Shown: positions 30,955 through 57,620 of the stretch, piece by piece
Numbering within the stretch: the first letter of the stretch is position 1
Layout: the number at the start of each line of letters is the position of its first letter
Assembly (NCBI GenBank): GCA_965200965.1
Contig: OZ241744.1
Location: forward strand, 32,001-96,000
Direction: 5' to 3'
From: an uncultured Candidatus Binatia bacterium
GTDB lineage: Bacteria > Desulfobacterota > Binatia > Bin18
DNA length: 64,000 nucleotides
The notes under the pieces: generated by a model
The model's input: the letters and a program-made list of their open reading frames with translations, nothing else
Told to the model about the DNA's origin: nothing
Databases searched by the model: none
Translations under genes and position numbers: made by a program

Positions 30955-33466
30955 TCACTCAATGTAGCCCAGTTCCGAAGCGATGCCCCCAGAGATGGCA
31001 AAGACCCGCACTTCACCACCGCCGACAAAAGGCTCGGCTGGTAAGGATATACGAAAGCCTGAGGTGGCCAACGCTGGCTGGCCGAGCCACTCGGCAATAT
31101 CCGGGCGAGAGATGTTCGTTGGGCCGGCATGGTGAAATGCGCCGTTCAGAAAAATAAGAATGCGCTCGGCCACCCGCCCGTGCTTTTCGTCAACCGCCCA
31201 GCCCTTGAGCAAGACGGAGTGCTCAGAAAACCGAGGGGGCTCAAGGTAGCCTCGGAGTGCGTGGGGACGAATGGGAAAGGTTGTCCCGTCTGAGGCCACC
31301 ACTGCGGTCTGGGCCAAGCGGTAGTGGACTCTGGCGGGGCAGGCCAAGGCTGTCCGGCCGGCAGCCTCGGTGATAACACACACCTCAACCGTATTGCGGC
31401 CCGCCCGAAAAGCGGCTTCCGGGACAAGGGCCGACCAGCTCCCGGGCCGGCCGTACACTGGAACGCTCCACGGCTGCGTCGTCGCCTGGATCGTGCCATT
31501 GACCGCCACAGCAAGGGAGAAGGGCGAGTCGCCATTGAGCGGCGGAGAGACCCCGCCGGTGATATGAGCGGGCACGAAGTCGGATTGGGGGTCCACCGTG
31601 GCAAAGCGATCAGGCCGGTCAATCTCAATCTGGACCTTGGTGTGGACGCTGCCGAACTCTTCAAGCCGGTGGCCGAGGAGTTGTGGGGTGGGGCCGGGGG
31701 CAGGTGGAAAGGGCGTCTCAGAGCCAAACAGACGGTGCTGACGCTGGACTGCGCGCTCTCGGGCCTTGGCTAAGCCGTCGAAGGTCACGGTTCTGCCATG
31801 ATCTGCAAAAATCCGGCGTCTCCGCTCGGGGCACGGCCCCAAGGCCGAGCAGCCATCGGCTTCCCAGGGCAGTTCCACCCCGAGCATGGCGGCAAGGGTC
31901 GGCAGAATATCAATCGTTTCCAGCGGCCTGTCGTTGATGCGGCCTGTCCGTTGGAAGGGGGCTTTGATGAAGAGGGGGACGGGCATAATGTCTTGGAAGG
32001 TGGTCTGGACAGGGCGGCGGTTCCAGTCACCCGGTCGAAAACTGATTCCGTGGTCGGAGGTGATGACGAGCAGGGTTTGCTCATACAGGCCAGTTTGCTT
32101 GAGATGGGCCGTCAGTTCTCCCAGCCAGGTATCAACAAAGCCAACCTGGAGCAGATGACGATAGTAGACCCGGAGGACTCCCCAGGGGTCGTCAAGGTAG
32201 CGTTGGCCTATCAGGCCGGGGGTGCTGCCTTCCTGGCTATAGACCTTTCCGGACGGGAGGTAGTGATATGGGCCGTGGGGCAGGAGGAGATGAAGATAAT
32301 ACAGCCGCGGCTGGTCTGTCGCCCGAATGGCTTGGATGAAGTCCCACGCCTGCGAGCGGCGCTTGGAAAGAAGGGTTTGGCGCACCATCCTGTCAAAAAA
32401 TTGTGACTGGGCAGCGTGGCGGTTGGACGGCTCTTGGGCATTGACAAAGCCCATCCAATTCTGGGAAATCGCTGGAAGCGTGGCGCGGAGGTCCCGGGGC
32501 AGGAGCAGGTGGAGATAGACAACCGTCAGGTCAGACAGCAGGGCGGGGAGACGCTGCCATGCAGAGCCTCCGGCCTGCGGGCATATGTGGGCTGGACAGA
32601 GTTGGGTCAGGGTGCCAAACGCGTTGAGCTCATAGGGCCGGGCCAACAGCGTGAACATATTGTCGGGGTGGTCGGCGGCGTGGGGCAGGCGGCGTGCGGT
32701 GTCAGGGTACTTGCCGGTCAGGATGGCTGGAACCGATCGGACGGTTACGGAACTGACGGTGGTGGTATTCCGAAACCAGGTTGCGTGCTGGGCCAGGGCC
32801 GCAAAATTGGGATAGCGGACCGTGTCAATCTGCTGGTGTTCGTTGAGCAGGGAGACCAGAGGGAGTTCGTCCAGGATAATAAAAACAATGGGGGGTGGAG
32901 TGGGAAGAGGTACACGCTCAGCCGGCACGGGGGGGGGGGGCAGCCGGAACGACGCTCCGAAAGGCAGGCGAGGCAAACACAAACAGGCCCGGAAAAATCA
33001 GCACTGCCGGAGACAGCAGGCTGAAGAACTGCCGAACGGGCAGAAAAAAGACATAAGCCAGCGCGGCCACCCCTCCGCACAACAGCGCTCCGGCAGCGAG
33101 GAGCGTACCCGGCAGGGCGATGGGGTGCAGGGCAGGGAGCACTGTGGCCGCCACCCCCCCGGCAATAAGCGCGCTATGGACCCAGCGTCTCAGCCGGTGG
33201 CTGAGGAGACCGGTGATTCTCTCCACGCCTGTCAAACCGAGCGGGAGGAGCACGCAGAGTATGACGACCAGAGCGGCACTGTCTTGCCAGGTAGCGTGCC
33301 GGAAGACAAAAAACTCGGCTTGGCGCGCCAGCAACTCAAAGAGGGGCTGTGCAATGGCAAAGCCCACTATGACAAAAACGTGCAGGCTGGCCGCATAGGC
33401 CGTCTCTCTCTTCTGCACGGTTGCGGGTGGGTGGGATGGGTGGTGTTCAGGTTTTTGGCTGGCCAT
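30955..33466 (-). pseudogene. membrane-anchored alkaline-phosphatase-superfamily (sulfatase-like, LtaS/NoeB-like) transferase, copy 1; frameshifted at a G12 tract and possibly phase variable
   Basis: ORFs 32918-33628 and 30955-32982 together match the intact paralog; the frame breaks at G12 (32929-32940) and removing one G gives 836 aa; ILDEL, SVTVRSVP, HLLLPH and TSDHG motifs. Confidence 0.85.
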
Positions 33467-34922
33467 AGTAGAGGATGCGCGTACCTGAGGCCAAGGCTTG
33501 ACGCTCGCGGATAGCAAAAGCGGCGGATAAGCAGCGCTCAAAATACGCCGTCTCATAGTCCGCATGGTGGTCGTCTTTGCGGCGGAGCAAGGTCTGGACC
33601 ATAGGGTCCTCGCGGGTGATGAACTCAATGACCACCGCGGCCCCAGAGCCTGCCAGCCAGGCGATGCAGTCGGAGAGAGGAATATTGGCCCCGATCACCA
33701 GATGGTGAATGAGGGCCAGACCCAGGATGAGGTCGGGTCGGGCCCGACGGTCGAGGGCCTTGCGTTCTGTCCCCCGCCAGCCGAGGTTTGGTGCCGGATC
33801 GGCCAGATTGCTGACCAGGGGCAGAATCGTGGTTTCCCCGTCCGCCTTCAATTCCTGGTAGAGCCGTTCTATGACCAGGCTATCGACATCCAGGGCAACG
33901 ACTGTGGTAGCGTTTTGGGCTGCAATGCGTGAGAACGTGCCGGTGTTGCAGCCCAGATCCCAGACCATTGGCCAGGGCCGCGAGTGGATCACGCGGCGGA
34001 CAAAATCGGCTTTTCGGGTCTGCTCGCTCTCCGTGTACGGAAGTTGGTGGGTATACGCCGCCCATGTTGAGCGTGAGCGCTTCCAACTCAGACGCCGGAT
34101 CAGTTTTATCAAACGACCGACATTGGCTTGAATCACGGCCGTATGAAAGCCGGCCCGGCGCAGCTCGTGTTTGAGGTTCTGTTGACGACCGGGTTTGCCC
34201 GGACGCGCCGGCTGAGCAGAGTCGGCATACCGGGCTTGGGCTTTGGCCTGCAAATACACATGGCTGAACACGCCGGGCCGCAGCAGGTCACGCACCGACA
34301 TGAGCCCGTGACAGTCTTGGGCGGTAATGCCTTCAAGACTCCCGCGCAGCCAGGCGTGAAAGGGGAGGTCTTTATACGCCTGGAGGAGGAGCGGAAACAG
34401 AAATAATTGACAGAACTGCCGATAGCCCACCCAGGGTTCTCCAGGGCACAACCGGGTAAAAGAGGGGAGGTCGATAAAAAGCGGGCGGCTGCCGACCCAC
34501 TGGACATTGTAAGGCGAGGCGTCTTTGAGAATCATACCCTCGGCTAAGGCGTCACGCAGCAACTCCAACTGGAGCAAAGCGGCGTCCTTGAGCATACCAA
34601 ACGCCCATTCGTAGGGATAGGAAACAACCGGGAGCTTGGGGTGTTTGAGGGCAGCGACCCAGGGGCTTGCGGGAGACGGGCGTTCTGATGCGGCAAACTC
34701 AGGGCTGAGGTCCCGGAAATGGAGCGGATCAAGCTGCTCGGTCTGGACAATTTTCCCGGCGTTGTGCCAGCGCTGAAAAAAGGTGGTTCGGGTCAGCTGA
34801 TTCCAGTCGGCCAGGGCCGGCGCGGTCAGTGTTCGCACTACCGTGTCTGCCTGATAAAAAACGCGGCTCGTGCGGTCGCGGAACGAGCCGGGCTCAGACC
34901 TGATCTCATCAGAAAAAGACAT
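33447..34922 (-). CDS. NoeA-like protein: kinase-like N-terminal domain fused to a class I SAM methyltransferase
   Basis: GSFRD, VSYPYEW, LKDASPYNVQW..FID (kinase-like catalytic loop); VWDLGCNTGTFS, LALIHHL (methyltransferase). Confidence 0.8.
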   Translation of the reverse strand: MSFSDEIRSEPGSFRDRTSRVFYQADTVVRTLTAPALADWNQLTRTTFFQRWHNAGKIVQTEQLDPLHFRDLSPEFAASERPSPASPWVAALKHPKLPVVSYPYEWAFGMLKDAALLQLELLRDALAEGMILKDASPYNVQWVGSRPLFIDLPSFTRLCPGEPWVGYRQFCQLFLFPLLLQAYKDLPFHAWLRGSLEGITAQDCHGLMSVRDLLRPGVFSHVYLQAKAQARYADSAQPARPGKPGRQQNLKHELRRAGFHTAVIQANVGRLIKLIRRLSWKRSRSTWAAYTHQLPYTESEQTRKADFVRRVIHSRPWPMVWDLGCNTGTFSRIAAQNATTVVALDVDSLVIERLYQELKADGETTILPLVSNLADPAPNLGWRGTERKALDRRARPDLILGLALIHHLVIGANIPLSDCIAWLAGSGAAVVIEFITREDPMVQTLLRRKDDHHADYETAYFERCLSAAFAIRERQALASGTRILYYGQPKT

Positions 34923-34956
34923 GGGCCACGCCTGAGCCGAAGCGTAGACCGGGAGG

Positions 34957-35196
34957 CTATTCCCGCTCGCTCGCCTGAGCGTCTTCGCTCTTCGGGTCTT
35001 TCGTTTGGTCAACACCGAACACGCGCAGGAAACGCTGCCAGTACAGCTTGAGCAAAACGGCCAGACCAGCCATCCCGCCGAGCACGAGTTGCAGGAACAT
35101 GCTGCCGCTGCCCGGATCGAGATAGGCGTGGGCAGCGCGTGGAAAGCCACAGGTCATCCCTGTCAACACTGCAAGGAACAGCCCTCTTCTCTGCAT
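34957..35196 (-). CDS. small membrane protein with AYLDPGSGS motif (79 aa)
   Basis: GGAGGGG RBS; signal-like N-terminus ending AHA|Y, then LDPGSGS, one TM helix and a charged tail. Confidence 0.8.
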   Translation of the reverse strand: MQRRGLFLAVLTGMTCGFPRAAHAYLDPGSGSMFLQLVLGGMAGLAVLLKLYWQRFLRVFGVDQTKDPKSEDAQASERE

Positions 35197-35386
35197 AGTC
35201 CCCTCCTGATCGCAACTCGCCTGGTGCTGCATCCGTAGTTGTGCTGTGGGAGCGAATTGGCCTCAGCACCGACGGCTCTCTCTCCTATCACGGGCTGCCA
35301 AGATTGAAAAGAGGGAGATTGAGGGGCCGGGGCAGAGAGGAGAACCGCTGCGGGACTGTCCCGCTGCCGCCGGGTCTGGCATGGTA
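35154..35386 (+). repeat. about 230 bp direct repeat, copy 1 (leader region plus 5' end of the micropeptide gene)
   Basis: Closely matches 37584-37815 from TCATCCCTGTCAACAC to GGCATGGTA. Confidence 0.92.
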
Positions 35387-37531
35387 GCCTCGGAGTGCGT
35401 GGGGACGAATGGGAAAGGTTGTCCCGTCTGAGGCCACCACTGCGGTCTGGGCCAAGCGGTAGTGGACTCTGGCGGGGCAGGCCAAGGCTGTCTGGCCGGC
35501 AGCCTCGGTGATAACACACACCTCAACCGTATTGCGGCCCGCCCGAAAAGCGGCTTCCGGGACAAGGGCCGACCAGCTCCCGGGCCGGCCGTACACTGGA
35601 ACGCTCCACGGCTGCGTCGTCGCCTGGATCGTGCCATTGACCGCCACAGCAAGGGAGAAGGGCGAGTCGCCATTGAGCGGCGGAGAGACCCCGCCGGTGA
35701 TATGAGCGGGCACGAAGTCGGATTGGAGGTCCACCGTGGCAAAGCGATCAGGCCGGTCAATCTGAATCTGGACCTTGGTGTGGACGCTGCTGAACTCTTC
35801 AAGCCGGTGGCCGAGGAGTTGCGGGGCGGGGCCGGGGGCAGGTGGAAAGGGCGTCTCAGAGCCAAACAGACGGTGCTGGCGTTGGACTGCGCGCTCTCGG
35901 GCCTTGGCTAAGCCGTCGAAGGCCACGGTTCTGCCATGATCTGCAAAAATCCGGCGTCTCCGCTCGGGGCACGGCCCCAAGGCCGAGCAGCCCTCGGCTT
36001 CCCAGGGCAGTTCCACCCCGAGCATGGCGGCAAGGGTCGGCAGAATATCAATCGTTTCCAGCGGCCTGTCGTTGATGCGGCCTGTCCGTTGGAAGGGAGC
36101 TTTGATGAAGAGGGGGACGGGCATAATGTCTTGGAAGGTGGTCTGGACAGGGCGGCGGTGCCAGTCACCCGGTCGAAAACTGACCCCGTGGTCGGCGGTG
36201 ATGACGAGCAGGGTTTGCTCATACAGGCCAGTTTGCTTGAGATGGGCCGTCAGTTCTCCCAGCCAGGTATCAACAAAGCCAACCTGGAGCAGATGACGAT
36301 AGTAGACCCGGAGGACCCCCCAGGGGTCGTCAACACGGATCGTGGGCGTCATGTCGGGGCTGACCGCTTCTTGGGAATAGACCTTTCCGGACGGGAGGTA
36401 GTGATATGGGTCGTGGGGCAGGAGGAGATGAAGATAATACAGCCGCGGCTGGTCTGCCGCCTGAATGGCTTGGATGAAGTCCCGCGCCTGCGAGCGGCGG
36501 TCGGGCAGCAGATCTCCAGGTATCCCCGTCCGGGAAATCTTTGGAAGCGGGGCGCTGAGGTCCCGGGGCAGGAGTCTGTAGCAATACGCAAGGGCAAGGT
36601 CAGACAGCAGGGCGGGGAGACGCTGCCATGCAGAGCCCCCGGCCGGCGGGCATATGTGGGCTGGACAGAGATGGGTCAGGGTGCCGAACGCGGCGATCTC
36701 ATAGGGCCGGGCCAACAGCGTGAACACATTGTCGGGGTAGTCAGTGGCGTGGGGCCGGCGGTGGTCGTAGGCAGGGTACTTGCCGGTCAGGATGGCTGGA
36801 ACCGATCGGACGGTTACGGAACTGACGGTGGTGGTATTCCGAAACCAGGTTGCGTGCTGGGCCAGGGCTGCAAAATTGGGATAGCGGACCGTGTCAATCT
36901 GCTGGTGTTCGTTGAGCAGGGAGACCAGGGGGAGTTCGTCCAGGATAATAAAAACAATGGGGGGTGGAGTGGGAAGAGGTACACGCTCAGCCGGCACGGG
37001 AGGGGCAGCCGGAACGACGCTCCGAAAGGCGGGCGAGGCAAACACAAACAGGCCCGGAAAAATCAGCACTGCCGGAGACAGCAGGCTGAAGAACTGCCGA
37101 ACGGGCAGAAAAAAGACATAAGCCAGCGCGGCCACCCCTCCGCACAACAGCGCTCCGGCAGCGAGGAGCGTACCCGGCAGGGCGATGGGGTGCAGGGCAG
37201 GGAGCACTGTGGCCGCCACCCCCCCGGCAATAAGCGCGCTATGGACCCAGCGTCTCAGCCGGTGGCTGAGGAGACCGGTGATTCTCTCCACGCCTATCAA
37301 ACCGAGCGGGAGGAGCACGCAGAGTATGACGACCAGAGCGGCACTGTCTTGCCAGGTAGCATGCCGGAAGATAAGGAACTCGTCATGGCGCGCCATCATG
37401 TCAAAGAGGGGCTGTGCAATGGCAAAGCCCACTATGACAAAAACGTGCAGGCTGGCCGCATAGGCCGTCTCTCTCTCCTGCACGGTTGCGGGTGGGTGGG
37501 ATGGGTGGTGTTCAGGTTTTTGGCTGGCCAT
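35288..37531 (-). CDS. sulfatase-like (LtaS/NoeB-like) membrane transferase, copy 2; in frame but lacking the C-terminal domain of copy 1
   Basis: Near-identical to copy 1 up to HALRGY, then reads into the repeat; alternative GTG start at 37573. Confidence 0.85.
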   Translation of the reverse strand: MASQKPEHHPSHPPATVQERETAYAASLHVFVIVGFAIAQPLFDMMARHDEFLIFRHATWQDSAALVVILCVLLPLGLIGVERITGLLSHRLRRWVHSALIAGGVAATVLPALHPIALPGTLLAAGALLCGGVAALAYVFFLPVRQFFSLLSPAVLIFPGLFVFASPAFRSVVPAAPPVPAERVPLPTPPPIVFIILDELPLVSLLNEHQQIDTVRYPNFAALAQHATWFRNTTTVSSVTVRSVPAILTGKYPAYDHRRPHATDYPDNVFTLLARPYEIAAFGTLTHLCPAHICPPAGGSAWQRLPALLSDLALAYCYRLLPRDLSAPLPKISRTGIPGDLLPDRRSQARDFIQAIQAADQPRLYYLHLLLPHDPYHYLPSGKVYSQEAVSPDMTPTIRVDDPWGVLRVYYRHLLQVGFVDTWLGELTAHLKQTGLYEQTLLVITADHGVSFRPGDWHRRPVQTTFQDIMPVPLFIKAPFQRTGRINDRPLETIDILPTLAAMLGVELPWEAEGCSALGPCPERRRRIFADHGRTVAFDGLAKARERAVQRQHRLFGSETPFPPAPGPAPQLLGHRLEEFSSVHTKVQIQIDRPDRFATVDLQSDFVPAHITGGVSPPLNGDSPFSLAVAVNGTIQATTQPWSVPVYGRPGSWSALVPEAAFRAGRNTVEVCVITEAAGQTALACPARVHYRLAQTAVVASDGTTFPIRPHALRGYHARPGGSGTVPQRFSSLPRPLNLPLFNLGSP

Positions 37532-37583
37532 AGTAGAGGATGCGCGTACCTGAGGCCAAGGCTTGACGCTCACGGATAGTAAA

Positions 37584-37815
37584 TCATCCCTGTCAACACT
37601 GCAAGGAACAGCCCTCTTCTCTGCATGGTCCTCTCCTGATCGCGGCTCGCCTGGTGCTGCATCCGCAGTTGCGCTGTGGGAGCGAATGGGCCTCAGCGCC
37701 GGCGGCTCTCTCTCCCATCAGGGCTGCCAAGATTGAAAAGAGGGAGGTTGAGGGGCCGGGACAGAGAGGAGAGCCGCTGCGGGGCTATCCCGCTGCCGCC
37801 GGGTCTGGCATGGTA
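37584..37815 (+). repeat. about 230 bp direct repeat, copy 2; carries the 5' part of an 18-aa remnant of the micropeptide (37570-37626, - strand)
   Basis: Matches 35154-35386; remnant reads MQRRGLFLAVLTGMIYYP*. Confidence 0.9.
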
Positions 37816-48586: not shown

Positions 48587-49153
48587 ATGTCACATCCGCT
48601 GCGCCATACCCCCGAGTCCGTCCGATTCCTGGCCGACCGCACGGTCGGCAAGCTGGCCCGCTGGCTGCGCATCCTGGGCTATGACACCCTGTATTGGCCG
48701 CAGCTGACGCCGGTCGGCCTGCTGGCCGAGGGCCGCCGCCAGGGACGGGTGATCCTGAGCCGCAACACCCGCATTCTGCAAGGACGGAGCGTCTCGCCCT
48801 CCTCTCGGTCTGATGAGACGCGCCGGCCTTGGGTCAAAGACGCGCCGGCCTGTGTCTTCATCCGGCCCGCTCATTTCCGCCAGCAACTCAAGCAGGTGGT
48901 TGAAACGCTTGGGCTTGAGGTGACAAGCGCTGTGCTGAACCGCTGTGTGGCGTGCAATCAGGTCCTCCAGGCGGTCTCCAAGGCCGAGGTCGAGGCCCGG
49001 GTGCCGGCCTATGTGTGGCGCACCCAGTCGGCCTTTCGGCGCTGCCCCGGGTGTGGGCGTATCTACTGGCCGGCCAGCCACCGGGATCATATTCTGGCCG
49101 AGCTTGAGCGGCTGGGCTTGGCCGCGGCGACCGAAACGCGAGCGGAAAACTGA
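48587..49153 (+). CDS. Mut7-C RNase (PIN-like) domain protein containing a 17-aa palindrome-derived insertion
   Basis: FLADRTVGKLARWLRILGYDT, RCVACN, CPGCGRIYWPASH. Confidence 0.9.
   Translation: MSHPLRHTPESVRFLADRTVGKLARWLRILGYDTLYWPQLTPVGLLAEGRRQGRVILSRNTRILQGRSVSPSSRSDETRRPWVKDAPACVFIRPAHFRQQLKQVVETLGLEVTSAVLNRCVACNQVLQAVSKAEVEARVPAYVWRTQSAFRRCPGCGRIYWPASHRDHILAELERLGLAAATETRAEN
48780..48830 (+). repeat. 51-bp palindromic element, copy 1 (in frame in the Mut7-C gene)
   Basis: AAGGACGGAGCGTCTC-19 nt-GAGACGCGCCGGCCTT; 47/51 identical to the reverse complement of 49258-49308. Confidence 0.9.
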
Positions 49154-49590
49154 TGGCTGATCGCTGGGCCGGCTACTGGTTGTTGTGGGATGGGGGGTGA
49201 GGCTTCTGCCGCGGCTTTGTCGCTTGGGTCAAGCGACACGACCGGGCCGGTGTCATCGAGGACGGCGCGTCTCATCAGACCGAGAGGAAGGCGAGACGCG
49301 CCGTCCTTCGGGCTGTGGCCTGGCAGGACGCCCCCCGGCCGCCTGTGACGGATGAGTTGGCGCAGCGCTGTCGGCAGGCCCTCCATGTGATTACGCCGGC
49401 CGGCGAGACCTTGGCCGCCGGCCGGGCCAGTCTGTGTGTGCTGGGGCTGATCGGCTATCCGCGCTTGGCCCGTCTGGCCGGGCTACCGCCCTTCATCTGG
49501 GCGGTTGAGGCCGGCTACTGGCTTGTGGCCCGCAACCGGCGGTGGCTGAGCCGGGTGCTGTATGGCAAAAGCCAGCCCTGCCAATACTGA
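49153..49590 (+). CDS. DCC1-like (DUF393) thiol-disulfide oxidoreductase, candidate selenoprotein (UGA at codon 16)
   Basis: ATG overlaps the Mut7-C stop; MADRWAGYWLLWDGG-U-GFCRGF continues in frame to GYWLVARNRR; the UGA occupies the first Cys of DxxCxxC. Confidence 0.8.
49218..49238 (+). promoter_or_regulatory. bacterial SECIS-like hairpin
   Basis: TGTCGCTTG-GGT-CAAGCGACA perfect stem with a G-starting loop 26 nt downstream of the TGA at 49198-49200. Confidence 0.7.
49258..49308 (-). repeat. 51-bp palindromic element, copy 2 (inverted, in frame in the DCC gene)
   Basis: AGGACGGCGCGTCTC-19 nt-GAGACGCGCCGTCCT, a perfect 15-bp stem; encodes EDGASHQTERKARRAVL. Confidence 0.9.
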
Positions 49591-49652
49591 TGCGCGTCCT
49601 TAAAAGGCGTGATCGTGTCGCCTTCCCCTTGACCAGATGACACATTCACGCC

Positions 49653-49949
49653 TCAGTGCGACGGCGAGAGGGAGCGGGCGAGGCGTTCGGGAGAGAGGGC
49701 TTTTTCCAAGGGTCGCATGATCTGGCGTTCGACGGCCTGCCCGATATATGCGCTGCACGCCAGCCCCACAAGCCGCTGATATTGTTCGTGGGATATCTCC
49801 CCGCTGTCGCGGAACCTAGTCATTTTCCGGAGAAAAGCCCCGACATCTCTTGTGCTCAGTGAGCGGGGCTGGGGTGACTGTCCGGCTCTGGGACGCGGCA
49901 GGCGGTACGGCCGTAGGCGGGGAGCGTATGGCTTTGTAGCGTGTTTCAT
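49653..49949 (-). CDS. hypothetical basic protein, copy 1 of a duplicated gene
   Basis: Near-identical to 52640-52939, including about 60 bp of downstream flank. Confidence 0.6.
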   Translation of the reverse strand: MKHATKPYAPRLRPYRLPRPRAGQSPQPRSLSTRDVGAFLRKMTRFRDSGEISHEQYQRLVGLACSAYIGQAVERQIMRPLEKALSPERLARSLSPSH

Positions 49950-50041
49950 GGCTGTTCCGTCGGTCAATCGCGTGTTGTCTCCACCTTTGTCGCTGGTGTA
50001 GAGGAGCGGGGCGAGGGCCTGTGACACACCGCGTCGAGACC

Positions 50042-50425
50042 TTATGCAAGAGGCTGGGGTAACAAAACCGGCCTGGAGTGTTCGGCCAACTCCGCTTGCC
50101 AATCAAGGATGTCATCGCTCGGCCAGCCGGTAATGTTTGCGTGTCCAGGAGGGGTGTTGTCATACTCGACGCTCAGACCGCCAGGTCTCTCTGGGACAGC
50201 GTGTGTCGCAAGAATAGCCCACCCGTGCAATTTCTTTCCTCTGTCGCGCGCAACGGTTACGCCGCACTCTTCTGTGCGTTCATGCGGCCATGTATTGGTC
50301 CGAAACACGGAGACCTTGCCTTGGTGGGGTTGAAAGAGTTTGGCTTTCACGCCGGTCGCAGGCATCTTGTTCTTTTCCACGACAAATCGGGTCAGGGGTG
50401 GGCTGTCCTGGAGGCGTCCCATCAC
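50042..50425 (-). CDS. hypothetical protein, possible ADP-ribosyltransferase/RES-like toxin
   Basis: LTRF...LFQP..KVSVFR...LSVEYD..GHANITGWP (R-S-H spacing); abuts the upstream gene; low GC. Confidence 0.55.
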   Translation of the reverse strand: MMGRLQDSPPLTRFVVEKNKMPATGVKAKLFQPHQGKVSVFRTNTWPHERTEECGVTVARDRGKKLHGWAILATHAVPERPGGLSVEYDNTPPGHANITGWPSDDILDWQAELAEHSRPVLLPQPLA

Positions 50426-50893
50426 CTACCTGTCCTTTTCCTGTATCTGCGCCAATTTGGTAAAGCAGGGATCAATCAAATCTGCAATCTGATCCTCCCA
50501 AGCCCCAAGGTTTTTTGAGCGCGCCGTTCCATAAGTGCAGACATAGGCAACTGTTCCGTCCGGGTCAACCGTGAGCAGCAGCCGCCCATCTTTTTCAAGC
50601 ATCCATTCAAAATATACCCCTCCCTTTTCGGTCGCGCTCACGTCCGGGGCAGGAAGAGCAAAACAGTCTGCCGGGAACTGGTCAATCAGTTGGTGCGCAT
50701 ACTCTACCGCTTCGGGCGCGGCTGCTCCGTCAAACTCTGCTCCAATCTCCCCTTCCAAAAGTGCCCGGACCTCCCCCTCTTGGCGTTCTCTCTCCCTCTG
50801 TTCTTCCTCACCAGAGGAGAAAAATCTACTCACAGGCCGCATAGGAAGAGACCCTGGACAGGGTTCTTCCTCGGACATTTTGGATTCACTCAT
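50426..50893 (-). CDS. acidic hypothetical protein, possible antitoxin
   Basis: PAPDVSATEKGGVYFEW..LLLTVDPDG; its stop is directly followed by the start of 50042-50425. Confidence 0.6.
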   Translation of the reverse strand: MSESKMSEEEPCPGSLPMRPVSRFFSSGEEEQRERERQEGEVRALLEGEIGAEFDGAAAPEAVEYAHQLIDQFPADCFALPAPDVSATEKGGVYFEWMLEKDGRLLLTVDPDGTVAYVCTYGTARSKNLGAWEDQIADLIDPCFTKLAQIQEKDR

Positions 50894-50977
50894 GCTCAGG
50901 CCCTCTTCAGTTTGTGCGGTTTTATAGCCTGTTATGATGATCACACCGTAATGGCGCAATCCTACAAACTCTTTCTA

Positions 50978-51097
50978 CTGATGCCGACCCGCTGTCAACC
51001 CCCCCGTGGGGAAGCGGCAGGGGGGTGTCGGATGACGCTGTGCTACCCCGACCTGCGCGACTGGCTTGTGGCCCGCAACCGGCGGTGGCTGAGCCGG
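50978..51097. repeat. composite spacer 1: TTGACA-containing repeat + REP-like hairpin + 38-bp exact copy of the DCC gene 3' region
   Basis: 50978-51025 resembles 51990-52034; 51060-51097 is identical to 49517-49554. Confidence 0.85.
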
Positions 51098-51139
51098 TTC
51101 GTAGCGGGGGCAGGAGAGCGGGGCGGGTGAGGGCAGGAC

Positions 51140-51712
51140 TTACTTTGCTTTTTCCAAATCGGCGTAGGTCATAATTTTGTGATCTTGAACATCGAAGAAG
51201 TGGGCGAGCCAGCGCTGATAAAAACGAATATGGGCAAACTGACTTCTATCGTAATCCATAGCGCGTAGTAATTCGTTGTGGCACATCATATCAAGGACCC
51301 GATGGACTGGCGGTTCATCCGCCTCGATCCCAAGACGGTGCGCTCGAAACTTGGTGAGGGAGTGCATATCTCTCGGTTTTTCGGCCATTTCCATCTGCTG
51401 CTCAAGTTCGATAAATCGACGACACAAATCATCGTGGAGGCGGGCCGCAGGACCAGTCCCGACAACAAGGTCAATGGTGAAAAAGACAGTCACCAAGGCC
51501 GCGGCCAGGGAAGGGTAAAGCGTGCCCACATCGTTCAGCAGGGTAACGACCGTTGCCGAGCCAAAGATAACACCTAGCGCACTGGTGACTTGGCGGAAGC
51601 GGTCAAAGAACATCCGCCGCCGGGCGTGATAGCGAATGGACCGCCGAACGCCGAAAAGCAGGGCGTGCCACTCAGTATCGGGTTGATTTTGTGTTACGGT
51701 GTGGCCACTCAT
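51140..51712 (-). CDS. SLATT-like 2-TM effector protein
   Basis: LLFGVRRSIRYH..FFDR, two TM helices, AARLHDDL..FIELE, IEADEPP. Confidence 0.65.
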   Translation of the reverse strand: MSGHTVTQNQPDTEWHALLFGVRRSIRYHARRRMFFDRFRQVTSALGVIFGSATVVTLLNDVGTLYPSLAAALVTVFFTIDLVVGTGPAARLHDDLCRRFIELEQQMEMAEKPRDMHSLTKFRAHRLGIEADEPPVHRVLDMMCHNELLRAMDYDRSQFAHIRFYQRWLAHFFDVQDHKIMTYADLEKAK

Positions 51713-51754
51713 GACACTCTTCCCACATGTAGGATTGAAAAATTGACTTCCTGG

Positions 51755-51979
51755 TTAGTTGCTGTCGTCACCGTCGTCTTTCGGGGGTGGAGGTGGGAGG
51801 GTATCGCGTATTGTTTCTGTACGAGGCTTGTTGCTGTGACGAAATTCCTCGTCAATTCTTTCTCTGGGGCGGTCCTCGAGGGTTTTCTCTTTTTCTGCCT
51901 CTCTTTCTTTGAGGCGGTCCTCGAGGGTTTTCTCTTTTTCTGCCATTCGCTTTTCCTTTCTACGGGTTATCTTGAGCAT
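51755..51979 (-). CDS. small charged disordered peptide with an internal repeat and PPPPPK motif
   Basis: AEKEKTLEDR occurs twice (32-bp exact repeat, 45-bp period, 51868-51944); lies directly upstream of the SLATT-like gene. Confidence 0.55.
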   Translation of the reverse strand: MLKITRRKEKRMAEKEKTLEDRLKEREAEKEKTLEDRPRERIDEEFRHSNKPRTETIRDTLPPPPPKDDGDDSN

Positions 51980-51989
51980 ATCTTACTCG

Positions 51990-52132
51990 CTGATGCAAAC
52001 CCGTTGTCAACCCCTGTGGGAAAGCGGCAGGGGGCGTATCGGATCAGCGTAGCGTGATCCGATACGCACGACTAGCCTGTCTGGCCGGGAGGCCGGCTAT
52101 TGGCTTGTGGCCCGCAACCGGAGGTGGCTGAG
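51990..52132. repeat. composite spacer 2: TTGACA-containing repeat + perfect REP-like hairpin + degenerate DCC 3' copy
   Basis: GCGTATCGGATCA-GCGTAGCG-TGATCCGATACGC (52034-52067); 52089-52132 matches 49507-49550 at 42/44. Confidence 0.85.
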
Positions 52133-52140
52133 GGCAAAAG

Positions 52141-52575
52141 CTAGCCCCGCCAATGCCGGACGCCGTAGCCGGCCCCAAAGCCGCCAGCAAAAGCAGCAAG
52201 CACTTGGACAATCTGTTTATAGAGTTCTTTGTCAGCCGGTGCCAAGTAGAATGTCAACAGGCCGAACGAGAGAAGCACAATCAGGATGTAGACCAGCCTG
52301 TAGCGCCGGTCGGCCTTGGAGTACTCGAATGATCGCTCATCGTTCCTGCCGTCGTTCTCGATGAGTGTAGTGATATGGTCTTCGGTGAGCTTTTCGAGTA
52401 CGGGATTACGGGCGGGACCAATTGTTCCTGCAATAACTTGCTCAAATTGCTCTTCTATGACCTGTCGAGAAGCTGGGACAGAAGCCTCTTCTTGTCCGGG
52501 AGATTCTTGCTGCTCGCCCTCTGGGGTTGGTTTCGTGAGCGAACTATCAGGGCTGTCCGTGGGCTTGTCAGCCAC
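52141..52575 (-). CDS. 2-TM membrane protein (DUF2335-like architecture)
   Basis: Acidic disordered N-terminus, GPARNPVLEKLTEDHI, two C-terminal TM helices ending GGFGAGYG. Confidence 0.6.
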   Translation of the reverse strand: MADKPTDSPDSSLTKPTPEGEQQESPGQEEASVPASRQVIEEQFEQVIAGTIGPARNPVLEKLTEDHITTLIENDGRNDERSFEYSKADRRYRLVYILIVLLSFGLLTFYLAPADKELYKQIVQVLAAFAGGFGAGYGVRHWRG

Positions 52576-52639
52576 CGCTGGGCGTCCTTAAGAGGCGTGA
52601 CCGTGTCGCCTTCCCATCAGCCAGATAACCATTCACGCC

Positions 52640-52939
52640 TCAGTGTGACGGCGAGAGGGAGCGGGCGAGGCGTTCGGGGGAGAGAGCTTTTTCCAAGGGT
52701 CGCATGATCTGGCGTTCGACGGCCTGCTCGATATATGCGCTACACGCCAGCCCCACAAGCCGCTGATATTGTTCGTGGGATATCTCCCCGCTGTCGCGGA
52801 ACTTGGTCATTTTCCGGAGAAAAACCCCGACATCTCTTGTGCTCAGTGAGCGGGGTTGGGGTGACTGTTCCGCTCCGGTACGCGGCAGGCGGTACGGCCG
52901 TAGGCGGGGAGCGTATGGCTTTATGGCAGTCTGTTTCAT
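52640..52939 (-). CDS. hypothetical basic protein, copy 2
   Basis: GAGGA RBS; paralog of 49653-49949. Confidence 0.65.
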   Translation of the reverse strand: MKQTAIKPYAPRLRPYRLPRTGAEQSPQPRSLSTRDVGVFLRKMTKFRDSGEISHEQYQRLVGLACSAYIEQAVERQIMRPLEKALSPERLARSLSPSH

Positions 52940-52947
52940 GGGTGTCC

Positions 52948-53223
52948 TCAGGCTGTGCGCGGCGCGGTGCGGCTGATCACGCGGCTCTCACGTTCCTGAA
53001 ACCGTGTGCGTAAATCCCGGCGCAGGCCGTAGAGCGGAATGCCGCCCGGGGTGAGGGGCGACCGGATAAACAGGTCCTGATGTGCCTGGATGTAGGTCTG
53101 GACTTGCTCCGGGGAGAGGCCGGTCTGTCTGGCGATGCCCCCCGGAGTGCGCCACAGGGAGCGGGGGCCACAAAAGGCATTCACCAGCTTCGCCCCAATG
53201 GGATCAGTAAACAGTTCATTCAT
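52948..53223 (-). CDS. small protein, possible winged helix-turn-helix
   Basis: AGGAGG RBS; WRTPGGIARQTGLSPEQVQTYI; ATGA overlap with the upstream gene. Confidence 0.6.
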   Translation of the reverse strand: MNELFTDPIGAKLVNAFCGPRSLWRTPGGIARQTGLSPEQVQTYIQAHQDLFIRSPLTPGGIPLYGLRRDLRTRFQERESRVISRTAPRTA

Positions 53224-53567
53224 GGTGACTCCTCCTGTTGAGAAAGGCACTCGGGTTTAACCCGCGTGGTGATGATGTCCGCGAGCGCATCCTGAAACCC
53301 GTCGCTGTTGATAAACTCCTTGAGAGGCGTCACGTCTTCGTACAGATTGCGGGGCCGCCAAACCGTAATCCCTGCAACGACGAGGATCACGATCAGGAAC
53401 ACGATTATCATCAGTACAACTACATAAAATTGGTGGTCCGCACTGAGTTGAGAATTGATGACGACTAAGCCGATAATGCCTTCAATAACCAGCAAGCCCA
53501 CGGTGAAAAAGATCAGTGGATTGCGGACCTGAGTGAGCAACTTGGCTGGATTCTGTCCCACCGTCAT
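53220..53567 (-). CDS. 2-TM membrane protein
   Basis: VRNPLIFF + two hydrophobic helices + RPRNLY; CTGACC-17 nt-TAGAAT promoter candidate at 53648-53620. Confidence 0.7.
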   Translation of the reverse strand: MTVGQNPAKLLTQVRNPLIFFTVGLLVIEGIIGLVVINSQLSADHQFYVVVLMIIVFLIVILVVAGITVWRPRNLYEDVTPLKEFINSDGFQDALADIITTRVKPECLSQQEESP

Positions 53568-53778
53568 TTACGGTTGTCCCGTCGGTCAATCTCGCGTTGT
53601 CTCCCCCTTTGTCCCGTTCATTCTACTCCCCCCGCGTCGCAGGGTCAGCAGTTTTCCCCATGAAATATTCTTATCGGCTAGCATCAGCGCGTCTTATCAA
53701 AGCGGGCACTACGGGGAATGCGGGGACTTGGGGGAGGGGCGAAGGTCAGGGGAATCCCGGAATCATATGAGTCGGGGT

Positions 53779-56667
53779 TCAGACCCGGCCTTTGCCACCA
53801 TGTACGGAGGGTTCGGCGCACCATTTGGCGGCCAAGCGACGCACGGCCTTCCAGGTGGCTTCGGTGAAGCCGAGCAGGTCGCGGACGACACCGCGGTCGA
53901 GCCGGGCGCGGTTGGGGTCGGCCGCGGCCAAGTGGGCCGGCAGCAATACTGTGGTGCGGAACTCGTCGAAGATGGCCCGGGCGGTAGCAAGCTGGGCGGG
54001 GCTGAGGGCGCGGAAGTCAAGGACAGGCAGGGTTTCGGCGGAGCGGATGGTGAGCCGGGCCTTGCTGGATTGCTGGCGGCTCGAGTGCCACCAGTACGAT
54101 AGGAGGCCCAGGGTGCTGTTGCTCCACACGGCGAAGGCGTAATCGAATGTTCCATCGTCAAAAATGACGTTGGGCCACACCGTCCCGCCTATTGATGCGT
54201 GATCGGTGAAGGCGACTGCGAGGGGTTGAGAGCCAAATGTGTACTCCAGGTTAAGATGAACGCGGCTGGCGGTTGCCCATACCTCGGCGGCTTTGGTTTC
54301 CATGCCTATCCGAACCTGCAAGGCCGAGTCAGGGGCGCACACCATCCGCGTTTCTTTTTTGGCAGCGTGGTTCCACAGGGCGGGGTAGGTGGCGGTCGGG
54401 CTGGCCGCGGCCTTGGTGAACGGCCCACGCGGGGGCGGGCCGATGATGTCACGATGGACGAGGCCGAGCCTGCCTACCACGCCTAGGGGAGCGGTTTTCA
54501 GCTCAAGGGCGGCGGTGGCCGGCAGCCACAGTTGGGAGCGGGTCAGGGCGTAGGCGGTTTGGGCCAGGGCAGCATCCAGCAGCCGGACTGTGCCCCACGG
54601 TGCGCCGTTGGTGGGGCACGGGGCGGTCAGCGTCTCGCCGGCCAGTTCATCCCCGACGGTCAGGCGTGTGCCGCCGTAGGGGCCGTCTTCAATGTGCCGG
54701 ATGTTGTCGGCCGTGGCGATGCTTCTGGCCAGTTCGGCGGCCTGGGCAAAGCCCTGCGGGCGGTGGGTCAAGGAGACGAAACGGGCCGCCTGTAGGGCGT
54801 CGTCCGACTTGGCGTCACGGCGTTTGCGGGCAATGACCAGGCATTCGGCCATGCCCGTGTCTGAGGAGAAGGACATCTCCATGCCGGAGGCGGCAATGCT
54901 CAACACGGTCAGGTCTGTATATTTTTGGGCGAGCATATGCCGGAAGCCCTGCCAGGACAGGCCGGCGGCCGCGGACAGGGGCAGGACCAGGGCCAGCACG
55001 CCGCCGGGCTTGAGCTTGGCGTGGGCCAAGCCGGCAAAGGCCGAGGCAATGCCTGCGTTGCCGTGATAGCAACTGTGCTTGCCAAAGGTGTTGATGCGGG
55101 CTCCCATCGCGGTCTGGTCGGCCCGCGTGGCGTCAAACGCGGCAAAAGCCGGGTTGGTCACGTCGGCGTGTGCGCCCTCGTGGTTGGTGGCGCGGGTGAA
55201 AGGCGGGTTCATAATCACCAAGTCAAAACCCTCGTCTGGAATATCGGCCAGAATGTGGGTGGCGGTTTCTTCGCCAAGGCTGCCGGTGCGCTTGGCCGGA
55301 TCGCTGGTGTTGAGGAGTACCAATTGCCGGGTGGAGTGCAGCAGTTCCAGTGAGCCGATCTTCACGCTGGCGTCTGGCTGGCGGCCGTAGGCCAGGGTGT
55401 AGAGGCGCGAGCTGCCAAAGCTGGCTTGGGGCTGGACGCCGGACAGGGTGGAGCCGGTGATGTGGATGGCTGAGGGCATCACGTCGCAGCCGTACAGGAC
55501 TTCTTCCATCATGACCGGATGGAGGTCGGCCGGGTTGCCGCCGGTGCGCTCGTGGCGGCTGGCGATCTGCTCGTAGACCGCGGACAGCAGCGCGCCGGTG
55601 CCGCAGGCAAAGTCGGCGATGCGCAGCCGGCCAATGGCCGCGGGGTCGGCCCAGTCCAGGCCGCGGAGCTTGGCCACAGCCAAGCGGGCCAGCAGGGCCG
55701 CGGAGGCCGGCAGGGTGTAGAAGGTGGCCAGGTATTTGCGGTCGGCAATCAGACGCTGGAAGATGCGCCCGGTCAGGTCATGGGCGTTGGTGGCACCGGT
55801 GGAGGCGACGCCTTCGGCGGTGTGTCGCAGGGCGTGCAGGAGGGGGGCGGCGGTGGCCGGTGGCAGTTGGGCCACGATATCGCGGGCAATCGCAAAGATG
55901 GGCCAGTAGTTGATGTCCAGGATGGCGGTCCAGGCGGTCAGGATTTCATCCTGGGGGTTGGTGACAGCTTGGCCACAGACGAGGTGCAGGGGCTTGACCT
56001 CGGGGTACATACCGGCCAGCCGCTCGTGGAAGATCAGGGCGTTGGCAAGAATGGCGCAGGCCATGCGGCGGGTCTGGGCCACATCGGCCATGCCCAGCAG
56101 CCGGGCGATATGGGGGGCAATGGCCGGGCGTTGCTCGGCCATGTCGTGCAGGATGCTCACGCCGGCGTCAATGCCGTCCTCGAGGGCGCTGGCCGCGGCG
56201 TCTACGGCGTGCTGGGGGATGGACACGAGGCGGATCAGGTCGGCCAGATCGGCAACTGAGCCGGTCAGCCAGCCGGCGGCGGGAAAGCGCTGTGTATCCT
56301 GCTTATTCTGGCTGAAGACGCACCAGGACAGCGTGGCCCCGGCTATGGCCGCTTGCAGATCGTCGGCGGAAGCCAGGGTTTGCGGGTAGCGCAGGGCGAT
56401 AGCGGCCTCAATGGGGGTGGATTCGTGCACGACCGGCAAACCGAGACGGCTCGCAGCCTCGGCCTCGACGCTGCGGGCCGGGAAGTATTCGGCTTCAAGT
56501 GCGACCGGGGCGCGGTCCGGGGCGGTGATGGCGATGTCGAGTTGCAGCCCGGCATGGCCGGCGACAAGCCGGGTGTGCTCGGCCCGGACCTGGCAGCCGG
56601 ACATCATGCCGTTCAGCAGCCCGGCCAGGGCGGTGTTGGCGCTTGGTTCGGTCTGGTGGCCGCTCAT
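53779..56667 (-). CDS. single-chain restriction-modification protein (type IIG-like: nuclease-like N-terminus, N6-adenine methyltransferase, target-recognition domain)
   Basis: ATFYT, IADFACGTGALL (motif I), VIMNPPF (motif IV); N-terminal LDIAI...ALEAEY PD-(D/E)xK-like segment. Confidence 0.8.
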   Translation of the reverse strand: MSGHQTEPSANTALAGLLNGMMSGCQVRAEHTRLVAGHAGLQLDIAITAPDRAPVALEAEYFPARSVEAEAASRLGLPVVHESTPIEAAIALRYPQTLASADDLQAAIAGATLSWCVFSQNKQDTQRFPAAGWLTGSVADLADLIRLVSIPQHAVDAAASALEDGIDAGVSILHDMAEQRPAIAPHIARLLGMADVAQTRRMACAILANALIFHERLAGMYPEVKPLHLVCGQAVTNPQDEILTAWTAILDINYWPIFAIARDIVAQLPPATAAPLLHALRHTAEGVASTGATNAHDLTGRIFQRLIADRKYLATFYTLPASAALLARLAVAKLRGLDWADPAAIGRLRIADFACGTGALLSAVYEQIASRHERTGGNPADLHPVMMEEVLYGCDVMPSAIHITGSTLSGVQPQASFGSSRLYTLAYGRQPDASVKIGSLELLHSTRQLVLLNTSDPAKRTGSLGEETATHILADIPDEGFDLVIMNPPFTRATNHEGAHADVTNPAFAAFDATRADQTAMGARINTFGKHSCYHGNAGIASAFAGLAHAKLKPGGVLALVLPLSAAAGLSWQGFRHMLAQKYTDLTVLSIAASGMEMSFSSDTGMAECLVIARKRRDAKSDDALQAARFVSLTHRPQGFAQAAELARSIATADNIRHIEDGPYGGTRLTVGDELAGETLTAPCPTNGAPWGTVRLLDAALAQTAYALTRSQLWLPATAALELKTAPLGVVGRLGLVHRDIIGPPPRGPFTKAAASPTATYPALWNHAAKKETRMVCAPDSALQVRIGMETKAAEVWATASRVHLNLEYTFGSQPLAVAFTDHASIGGTVWPNVIFDDGTFDYAFAVWSNSTLGLLSYWWHSSRQQSSKARLTIRSAETLPVLDFRALSPAQLATARAIFDEFRTTVLLPAHLAAADPNRARLDRGVVRDLLGFTEATWKAVRRLAAKWCAEPSVHGGKGRV

Positions 56668-56683: not shown

Positions 56684-57136
56684 CTAGACCTGGCCCAACT
56701 GGCGCAGGGCCTCGTATAGCACGATGGCCGCGGCGTTGGACAGGTTCAGGCTGCGGACGTGTTGGCCCGGCATGGGGATGGTGTACAGGGACTCGGCTAA
56801 CTCGGCCCGGATAGAGGCTGGCAGGCCGCGCGTTTCACTGCCAAACACCAGCAGATCGTCGGGCCGATAGCAGACCTGGGTGTAGGACTCAGTGGCCCGG
56901 GCCGAGAAGGCCAGCAGCCGCCCGACGGGCCGCCGGCGGAGAAATTCGCCCCAATCCGCATAGGTCTGCACAGCGACATGCGGCCAGTAGTCCAGGCCGG
57001 CCCGCTTGAGATAGCGGTCTTCAAGGGAGAAGCCGAGGGGACCGACGAGGTGAAAGGCGGTGTGTGTGGCCGCGCACAGCCGGGCGGTGGTGCCGCTGTT
57101 GGGCGGAATCTCGGGCGCAACAAAGACGATGTGCAT
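56684..57136 (-). CDS. trmL: tRNA (cytidine(34)-2'-O)-methyltransferase
   Basis: PEIPPNSG, LKRAGLDYW, FGSETRGLP, RSLNLSN. Confidence 0.93.
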   Translation of the reverse strand: MHIVFVAPEIPPNSGTTARLCAATHTAFHLVGPLGFSLEDRYLKRAGLDYWPHVAVQTYADWGEFLRRRPVGRLLAFSARATESYTQVCYRPDDLLVFGSETRGLPASIRAELAESLYTIPMPGQHVRSLNLSNAAAIVLYEALRQLGQV

Positions 57137-57140
57137 GGGG

Positions 57141-57620
57141 TCAGGACTGAGGATCGGCCACGGAGATGGGGTAGGCGGTGTCGTTGAGGCGCAGGACAAA
57201 CGCCCCGGTCTCAGGCTCTTCGTCAATATAGGCGGCCAGTTGATAGTAGGCCGGGCGGGAGAAACGGGCCAGGTGGGCGTGTCCTTTGACCCGGCAGTAC
57301 ACGACATTGTCCGGTCCGATGTGCAGCGTGTCAGGGCTGAGGGCTTCTTCGCTGGTGTCGTTCAAGCGGACCCTGAGACCCCGGTCACGGTCGCCGCCCA
57401 GCGCGGTCACAAGGTAGGGCGCGTCGTCGATCTCAACCGTGGCCGTGTCCCGACCCAGCACAATCTGGTAGCGGCCGTCTTCAGTCCGCCGCAGATGTTG
57501 GCTGAACAGCAGGTTGATGCGCCGGTTTTCGATCCGCTCGTCATTGGCGTACCACCAGCCGTCTTTCCCAAAGCTGATCGTGCGGATGGAGTCAATCGCC
57601 CAGAATCCTGCTTTTGGCAT
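57141..57620 (-). CDS. DUF1285-like protein
   Basis: DGWWYANDERI, VEIDDAPY, YCRVK..ARFSRPAYYQL. Confidence 0.8.
   Translation of the reverse strand: MPKAGFWAIDSIRTISFGKDGWWYANDERIENRRINLLFSQHLRRTEDGRYQIVLGRDTATVEIDDAPYLVTALGGDRDRGLRVRLNDTSEEALSPDTLHIGPDNVVYCRVKGHAHLARFSRPAYYQLAAYIDEEPETGAFVLRLNDTAYPISVADPQS

Follow-up and report, generated by a model that had tools for sequence, protein, structure and literature searches.

A punctuated array of small genes beside a restriction-modification gene in a Binatia bacterium: probable stacking of alleles without a dedicated recombinase

Introduction

By what means can a row of small genes, separated by copies of the end of a neighbouring gene, be built up where no integrase lies at hand? 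The question is raised by a stretch of 64,000 nt (hereafter the window) from an uncultured Candidatus Binatia bacterium (assembly GCA_965200965.1, contig OZ241744.1, positions 32,001 to 96,000), which run labels identify as sponge-associated. Within it, nine minus-strand open reading frames (ORFs) lie between the gene of a DCC1-like thiol-disulfide oxidoreductase (hereafter DCC) and a restriction-modification (RM) gene, as stated in a preliminary description whose coordinates we confirm; they are labelled A, B, C, D, E, F, A2, G and H, running outward from the DCC side. That description proposed an integron-like defence array whose modules are added or exchanged by recombination at a repeat derived from DCC. 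The reading that we favour, with a probability of about 0.6, is that the array consists of stacked alleles of RM-linked cargo with DCC-end borders, which are added, lost or swapped by general homologous recombination without a dedicated recombinase. In what follows, G000 denotes the genome of the window, G001 and higher numbers the genomes of relatives, X1 and so on sequencing runs, and L025 and the like individual loci.

Organisation of the locus

Most of the nine genes have, as reported earlier, a lower GC content (0.50–0.57 in six of them) than the genome (0.615); A, A2 and G are the exceptions (0.60–0.64). The two composite spacers that interrupt the row are equally real, each being made of a TTGACA-bearing leader, a hairpin and a copy of the DCC 3′ region, and the RM gene that adjoins the array is indeed present, with a Type IIG-like, Eco57I-domain product (Table 1). 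The identities given for the two DCC copies (38/38 and 42/44) were reproduced, but their reported length is too short, since the copies extend further. Each TTGACA box was said to head a two-gene module; this holds for spacer 2 (E and D) but not for spacer 1, which heads three genes (C, B and A), and four in other strains where F is intact. Two features had been missed: A and A2 form a 368-nt duplicate of 92% identity, and the present tail of DCC (49564–49585) is what is left of a second copy of F that was deleted, so placed that the resident DCC gene now terminates in antisense F sequence.

Three units can be read from the array, namely (F)-A-B-C, D-E and F-A2-G-H, each of which has a DCC end on one side. 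The opposite border consists of a leader plus a hairpin for the first two units and only of a hairpin foot for F-A2-G-H. The two displaced DCC copies have start points about 50 nt apart, and one could derive from the other through an ACT-to-ACT deletion. When further spacer copies were sought throughout the genome, the DCC repeat proved unique to the locus. The repeat is beyond chance, because in 300 random windows of 4.1 kb the longest exact match to the DCC end was 16 nt. A DCC pattern scan of metagenomes gave 598 pattern matches, none of which was confirmed.

Comparison with relatives

DCC and trmL are directly convergent, leaving the site empty, in G001, G005, G014 and 19 of 20 further loci; beyond the genus there are 31 DCC matches, and these 20 together with G014 account for 21 of them. 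Among the seven relatives within the genus, two have an empty site, two are without trmL next to DCC, and three carry the RM gene or a remnant of it plus cargo. The last three read DCC-D-E::F′-A-B-C-RM in G007, where the order of D-E versus A-B-C is reversed relative to the window, DCC-F-A-RM remnant in G006, and DCC-G′-F′-RM remnant in G004. These loci show the DCC-trmL site to have been ancestrally empty. Neither the seven congeners nor the 21 other DCC loci examined have a duplicated DCC end; the stretch of G007 where spacer 2 would lie has been removed by the E::F fusion. A separate observation concerns G002, where a different gene follows DCC and trmL is not adjacent (L028:4690-4900); we take the sequence downstream of DCC there to be cobalamin-riboswitch-like.

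The RM gene is patchy, with a match in 18 of 56 genomes. In another genus it is found with cargo at other sites, as RM-E-D followed by a repetitive extragenic palindrome (REP) in G040 and G052 and as RM-A-F in G037, G047, G052 and G055, and a remnant of F lies behind it in G038; the RM loci of G014, G034, G048 and G049 hold none of the window's cargo. Homologous leaders stand ahead of E-D, immediately behind the RM gene, in G005, G040 and G052, while TTGACA leaders precede A-F in G006, G014, G037 and G052, with DCC nearby only in G006. Neither the TTGACA box nor the REP is a DCC-specific part, since both ride with cargo behind the RM gene elsewhere. Moreover, a segment of G005 that lies far from trmL (L025:11100-11190) comprises a 3′ stub of trmL, an RM gene cut to its two ends, a leader, E and D; host-gene stubs therefore travel with cargo in other cases too. 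Comparison of the loci shows one recurrent arrangement, in which the RM gene is trailed by a TTGACA leader and by A-F or E-D, often REP-ended; it is found at several sites in the family, and in the clade of this bacterium it lies behind trmL. On this evidence, the RM gene is the anchor that explains the cargo, and the DCC copies would be scars.

A promoter role may be supposed for the TTGACA leaders; neither has a canonical −10 box at 16–18 nt, and a promoter scan lists no sigma-70 site there. A reading of the motif TGTCAA as an IS200/IS605 end was ruled out, since the genome lacks a Y1 enzyme and the box belongs to the leader of the cargo. In genus g8 we noticed what looks like a second hotspot of like design, where the RM gene, with or without cargo, is convergent with the 3′ end of one gene, presumably a nitroreductase (L049 in G052, L054 in G049 and L057 in G047).

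Variation between strains

Eight runs were compared, which come from four studies and do not amount to eight independent tests. The contigs of X1, possibly the source sample, tile the region without differences, and one of them bridges spacer 2. In X12, from another study, a 2,706-nt contig covers both spacers in the window's order at about 5% divergence, with REP2 precisely lost. Misassembly is excluded because independent contigs, from other runs, bridge the spacers.

Neither is the content of the array invariant, as unit content and order differ between strains and species. A contig of X10 leads from the RM flank (53709) through a complete REP into the leader of spacer 2 (52044) and on to E-D, skipping F-A2-G-H exactly at the REP, and the contig ends of X7 match this joint. 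The same two runs carry a 1,513-nt deletion inside the RM gene (54687–56201). In X4 and X6, joints connect an intact F to A toward B, and the start of C via a DCC stub to G; the simplest path through them would be DCC-DE-FABC-GH-RM, in which D-E precedes A-B-C, the order of G007 but not of the window. The units differ in ancestry as well. D-E has diverged by 2.9–3.1% in X3, X7 and X10 versus 0.36% for the backbone (Fisher p 1e-9 for X3 and 2e-8 for X7), X4 is without differences in F and G-H and differs by 3.6% in B-C, and X6 and X12 have D alleles in common that X4 lacks. The contigs of X3 leave A-B-C uncovered and stop and restart within the DCC repeat, as would be expected if that unit had been lost; as no contig joins across, this case is not counted as proof. 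The contigs of X11 are too fragmented to be ordered.

Deletions are also found at non-repeat points, twice in F, in the E::F fusion of G007 and inside the RM gene. The earlier claim that recombination takes place at the DCC repeat can consequently be upheld only in part: breaks do fall at DCC copies and at the REP, and content and order do vary, but many deletions lie elsewhere.

The same data bear on a simpler history, in which the DCC end and its cargo were duplicated locally in tandem once, long ago, and only decay and deletion followed, without exchange between strains. A DCC-F-A stretch does occur twice, as A/A2 and the F stump indicate, and X12 has the window's order at its level of divergence. 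However, loss alone cannot reverse D-E versus A-B-C (G007, X4, X6), nor can decay yield a unit divergence several times that of the backbone. The reversed orders and the unit-specific divergence contradict this history, and we regard it as highly improbable.

How the units may have been joined

For the stacking of alleles by general recombination, the junction-forming step is the critical one. We infer that an allele from one strain became attached, through its REP-bearing end on the RM side and a microhomology of a few bases, to a point inside the DCC 3′ end, either on two occasions or once with a subsequent deletion. The incoming DNA may have been anchored by homology in DCC, or a circle may have entered by one crossover; in either case the old allele would have come to lie behind the new one, with a second DCC end as the result. 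Crossovers at DCC copies, REPs and A/A2 would then allow units to be lost, reordered or exchanged, likely via natural transformation, while illegitimate deletions would erode the array. The cargo itself would probably be kept in part for its anti-phage or toxin-antitoxin value. The competence genes comEC and dprA are present in the genome, and transformation is reported to be able to produce tandem duplications at repeats (PMC3784515).

Several points weigh against this reading. Both joins share the REP flank GACT, a coincidence that random illegitimate joining would not require. The contig data contain neither a circle nor an act of recombination, and the order of units in X4 and X6 comes from contig overlaps, assumes one strain per sample and uses joints called at 88% likeness. 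Competence genes do not prove transformation. The recombinase searches were genome-wide, those for DDE transposases being confined to the window. Finally, the copies measure about 40–110 nt, and such short stretches are a poor substrate for RecA-type exchange.

The hairpins suggest another route. What had been described as REP-like is a GTAG-type REP of a family associated with REP-associated tyrosine transposases (RAYTs); it has 28 copies in the genome, and in G001 and G006 it is found flanking the gene of a RAYT transposase. An Rfam search gave two chance-level matches only. A RAYT (TnpA-REP) could have cleaved single-stranded DNA next to the REP and linked it to CT or CA in the DCC end, whereby a unit would have been released or copied before entering at DCC; the array would in that case be a RAYT-built gene-capture device. 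REP1 with both flanks corresponds to the RAYT element of G001 at its right end, the alignment running to GACTG, where DCC sequence starts. A flank of the REP1 type is present as three tandem repeats in G001, and both joins in the window contain CT and use the same REP flank. REPs or their remnants follow cargo in G037, G038, G040, G047, G052 (two loci) and G055 and lie on both sides of D in G002, and in G057 a REP doublet has independently entered the last codons of DCC (L067:5400-5540). TnpA-REP is reported to cleave between C and T or between C and A on either side of a REP and to carry out strand transfer (PMC8266576), and has been proposed to sequester flanking genes (PMC3333891).

These dinucleotides are nevertheless too common to be diagnostic: one or the other occurs at both joins, but the exact break lies within microhomology, and the 28 REPs of the genome have no fixed cut-site flank. 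The genome contains no Y1 enzyme, and in the genus three of eight genomes have a match, among which G001 and G006 carry the REP. REPs mark 4 of 53 local duplications versus 1.4 expected (p about 0.056), which is not significant, and several cargo loci are without a REP. Capture by a RAYT is in our view doubtful. We would put forward only tentatively the wider idea that domesticated RAYT and REPs serve in vivo to capture genes and stack cassettes, joining RM-linked defence modules to core-gene 3′ ends in Binatia sponge symbionts and thereby producing integron-like arrays, an HUH enzyme replacing the integrase; if true, RAYT and REP would gain their still-missing host function.

Tests for an integron or an integrase

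As noted before, the window is without an integrase or transposase: such families have no match among the 15 ORFs of the locus or among 78 further window ORFs, the latter taken from 87 of at least 150 aa outside 47.6–57.4 kb, with nine omitted (two ABC-transporter ORFs and overlapping shadow frames). The genome as a whole has two tyrosine recombinases, whose best scores are to XerC and XerD, and neither a serine resolvase or recombinase nor IS110; searches for IntI (TIGR02249) over the cut-off and for Y1/RAYT (PF01797) gave 0 matches each. The absence of attC sites is likewise borne out, as far as a motif test goes, since R″ and R′ (RYYYAAC/GTTRRRY) are missing on both strands of four intergenic stretches. 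A pattern for the 28-bp dif-like sites of XerCD/pdif modules has no match in the spacers and none genome-wide either, hence there is no positive control. With only XerC/D, no attC, copies that start about 50 nt apart and many sloppy off-repeat deletions, the data do not support an integron-like locus in the sense of a dedicated system.

A direct repeat of the target gene 3′ end is, on the other hand, present at the unit borders. Units flanked by 3′ copies of a target gene that is itself restored form the classic attL/attR pattern, and the orders of the units differ between strains. The DCC end might accordingly be an att site at which a recombinase acting in trans, from a lost phage or island, integrated integrase-less circles in tandem, as the preliminary description implied. 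No such recombinase was found, the only candidates for a cognate tyrosine or serine enzyme being XerC/D-like, and neither was an attC or dif-like motif. The staggered starts of the DCC copies, the lack of a duplicated DCC end in the congeners and other loci examined, and the tie between cargo and RM gene at other sites also speak against an att site, which we consider improbable.

Table 1. Features of the array and its borders (positions in the window)
Feature	Position	Strand	Basis
DCC1-like thiol-disulfide oxidoreductase gene; 3′ end duplicated in the array	49153–49590	+	family match
3′ part of DCC that the spacers copy	49465–49554	+	sequence comparison
F stump (3′ end of deleted copy); gives present DCC C-terminus GKSQPCQY	49564–49585	−	F intact before A in X4, X6
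A, 98 aa, no family; F-paired in relatives	49653–49949	−	family search, relatives
B, 126 aa, predicted ART/RES-like fold, candidate toxin	50042–50422	−	structure model, fold search
C, 155 aa, no family; candidate antitoxin	50426–50893	−	upstream partner of B at other loci
Spacer 1 leader: TTGACA (50993–50998), small hairpin; 5′ leader of cargo unit	50978–51024	−	sequence comparison
REP1, GTAG-type; both flanks match right end of G001 RAYT element; meets DCC at ACTG	51026–51062	−	sequence comparison
Displaced native DCC 3′ end including stop codon (spacer 1)	51060–51130	+	matches DCC ends of G003, G004
D, 190 aa, SLATT-like two-helix membrane protein	51140–51712	−	phrog_11791; SLATT profiles
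E, 74 aa, proline-rich small ORF upstream of D	51755–51979	−	ORF, relatives
Spacer 2 leader: TTGACA (52005–52010)	51985–52034	−	homologues ahead of E-D behind RM: G005, G040, G052
REP2, perfect hairpin, loop inverted versus REP1, flank ends GACT	52035–52073		precisely lost in X12
Second displaced DCC 3′ copy, 25-nt internal deletion (spacer 2)	52072–52132	+	sequence comparison
F, 144 aa, hydrophobic C-terminal half, no significant family	52141–52575	−	ORF, family search
A2, 92% copy of A	52640–52939	−	sequence comparison
G, 91 aa, weak, non-significant helix-turn-helix (HTH) resemblance	52948–53223	−	family search, PADLOC
H, 115 aa, hydrophobic, unnamed family	53220–53567	−	Atlas cluster
RM 3′ flank, ends in GTAG foot (53709–53712)	53709–53778	−	run X10: whole REP next, directly into spacer 2 leader
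RM gene, 962 aa, Type IIG-like (Eco57I-domain), heads cargo	53779–56667	−	family and PADLOC match, relatives' loci
trmL (SpoU family); empty alleles have it directly convergent with DCC	56684–57150	−	family match, relatives

Cargo genes and the defence question

The description of the cargo as defence genes finds some support in two of the nine, SLATT-like D and ART-fold B, whose resemblance is weak; PADLOC 2.0 (E 0.02) gives significant matches for none of the nine, the RM gene alone being recognised. That at least one module is anti-phage seems to us rather probable.

D falls into phrog_11791 (E 1.7e-49) and is 48% identical to BcepMu gp19, which sits between repressor and lysis genes. D itself matches a SLATT profile at E 0.092, under the cut-off, and its homologues, taken at E up to 0.1, match SLATT_1 in 38 and SLATT_4 in 31 of 41 cases, the best at 4e-7; a Pfam search of D and these homologues gave nothing significant. 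In other phyla the neighbours of D (110 ORFs at 56 of 80 loci) are mixed: a number of them are prophage, methylase, GmrSD, Fic, AAA or caspase genes, and many others are housekeeping or unknown genes. Of the 80 loci, only 4 have an RM gene next to D, and these are all from Binatia; the link to RM is therefore lineage-specific.

The structure model of B has a mean predicted confidence (pLDDT) of 92.8. A fold search placed it closest to Tse2 (Z 6.7, root mean square deviation 2.7, 99 aligned) and KptA (Z 6.6); nearly all of the top 40 rows have the ART fold, every Z being below 8, the tool's caution level. Foldseek at E 0.001 returned no match for B or D, nor did a sequence search of the PDB with a B profile. 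Since C precedes B in all eight other loci, C-B may, by analogy, be a toxin-antitoxin-like pair. C and H have no plasmid matches, and the Atlas assigns them to unnamed clusters only. In six of the eight other C-B loci (L167, L170-L174), a conserved ORF of about 210–280 aa, which we would liken to TIGR04255, lies ahead of the pair; the window is without it.

Comparison with known systems

RM-adjacent defence islets are a general class, and the array is a variant of the RM-linked variable islet. With such islets and defence hotspots it has in common small, uncharacterised, lower-GC genes that are patchy, co-oriented behind an RM gene and placed between core genes. It differs, and is unusual, in that alleles are stacked in tandem and duplicated core-gene ends, as scars, and REP borders are retained. 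RM systems are reported to be enriched in sponge symbionts (PMC5649159).

Other comparisons hold in part. The small co-oriented genes, the variable content and order and the hairpin repeats recall integrons and clusters of attC sites lacking an integrase (CALINs), but IntI and attC are absent, the repeat comes from a host gene, and the units have two to four genes with a travelling TTGACA leader of their own, whereas integron and CALIN cassettes are mostly single-gene and promoterless. Islands driven by an integrase likewise leave a whole target gene with displaced 3′ copies flanking the units; here there is no integrase, the units are 1–2 kb long and the copies start at different positions. 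These features of integrons, CALINs and integrase islands are general background, and by them the array is like an integron in outcome and like a tandem island accretion in anatomy while being a member of neither class. Its GTAG-footed REP of a RAYT-flanking family, and the REPtron right-end flanks of REP1, resemble REPtrons, bacterial interspersed mosaic elements (BIMEs) and REPINs (PMC8266576, PMC3333891, PMC6006769); unlike there, the RAYT is absent and the REPs border multi-gene cargo and host-gene copies instead of forming BIME arrays. One anchor plus a join at a repeat or microhomology, with additive tandem integration in competent bacteria, is also known from transformation-made duplications and homology-facilitated illegitimate recombination (PMC3784515, PMC3240628), the difference being that in our case the events are deduced from natural strains and the units are small, non-identical alleles. 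Literature searches, most subscription papers and supplements aside, turned up no array that is fixed to the end of a gene and built by a RAYT or without an integrase.

What the array may add, on strain-level data, is the notion that a bacterium can keep a reorderable candidate defence array without a dedicated recombinase, core-gene scars and REPs serving as crossover points. Tools based on integrases or attC sites would miss arrays of this kind. The locus also offers four candidate gene pairs for phage challenge (C-B, E-D, A-F and H-G) and a natural junction on which gene capture by RAYT can be examined.

The DCC gene

DCC has an in-frame TGA at codon 16, within WDGG*GFC, followed by a hairpin of 8 bp with a GGT loop that resembles a selenocysteine insertion sequence (49219–49237). 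The TGA is common to the DCC genes of G007 and G004, and in 20 loci of other genera found by pattern the position is Cys. With selA and tRNA-SeC present in the genome, DCC is likely to be a selenoprotein of the DCC family. The main text of a 2026 selenoprotein inventory, supplements aside, makes no mention of DUF393 or DCC1 (PMC13188914).

A palindromic element of about 50 nt lies in frame in DCC (49257–49308) and accounts for 17 extra residues versus G007. The same element is found inverted in a Mut7-C gene (48780–48829), related copies follow A and A2, and there are about 75 binned matches genome-wide.

Other REP-punctuated and neighbouring loci

A second REP-punctuated array may exist in the genome, at G000:C1:1744150-1751900, where tandem 2.1-kb repeats (about 80% identical) of a tetratricopeptide-repeat gene, each headed by a REP, lie behind a methyltransferase-like and possibly RM-like gene; these gene names come from reading the sequence and not from a family search. 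At G000:C1:2994550-2996540, a REP and one gene, presumably an antitoxin-like HTH gene, are followed by three tandem paralogues, which we take to be coiled-coil proteins, with REPs between them. A 75-nt direct repeat with a REP flanks a core gene, ispF-like in our estimation, at G000:C1:1917377-1918290. In G006 (L039:1140-2020), a small gene that we assume to be HicB-like has a REP on either side and lies immediately upstream of the RAYT gene. Elsewhere in the window (31242–37815), two sulfatase genes of a polysaccharide locus have 1.1 kb in common at 96% identity.

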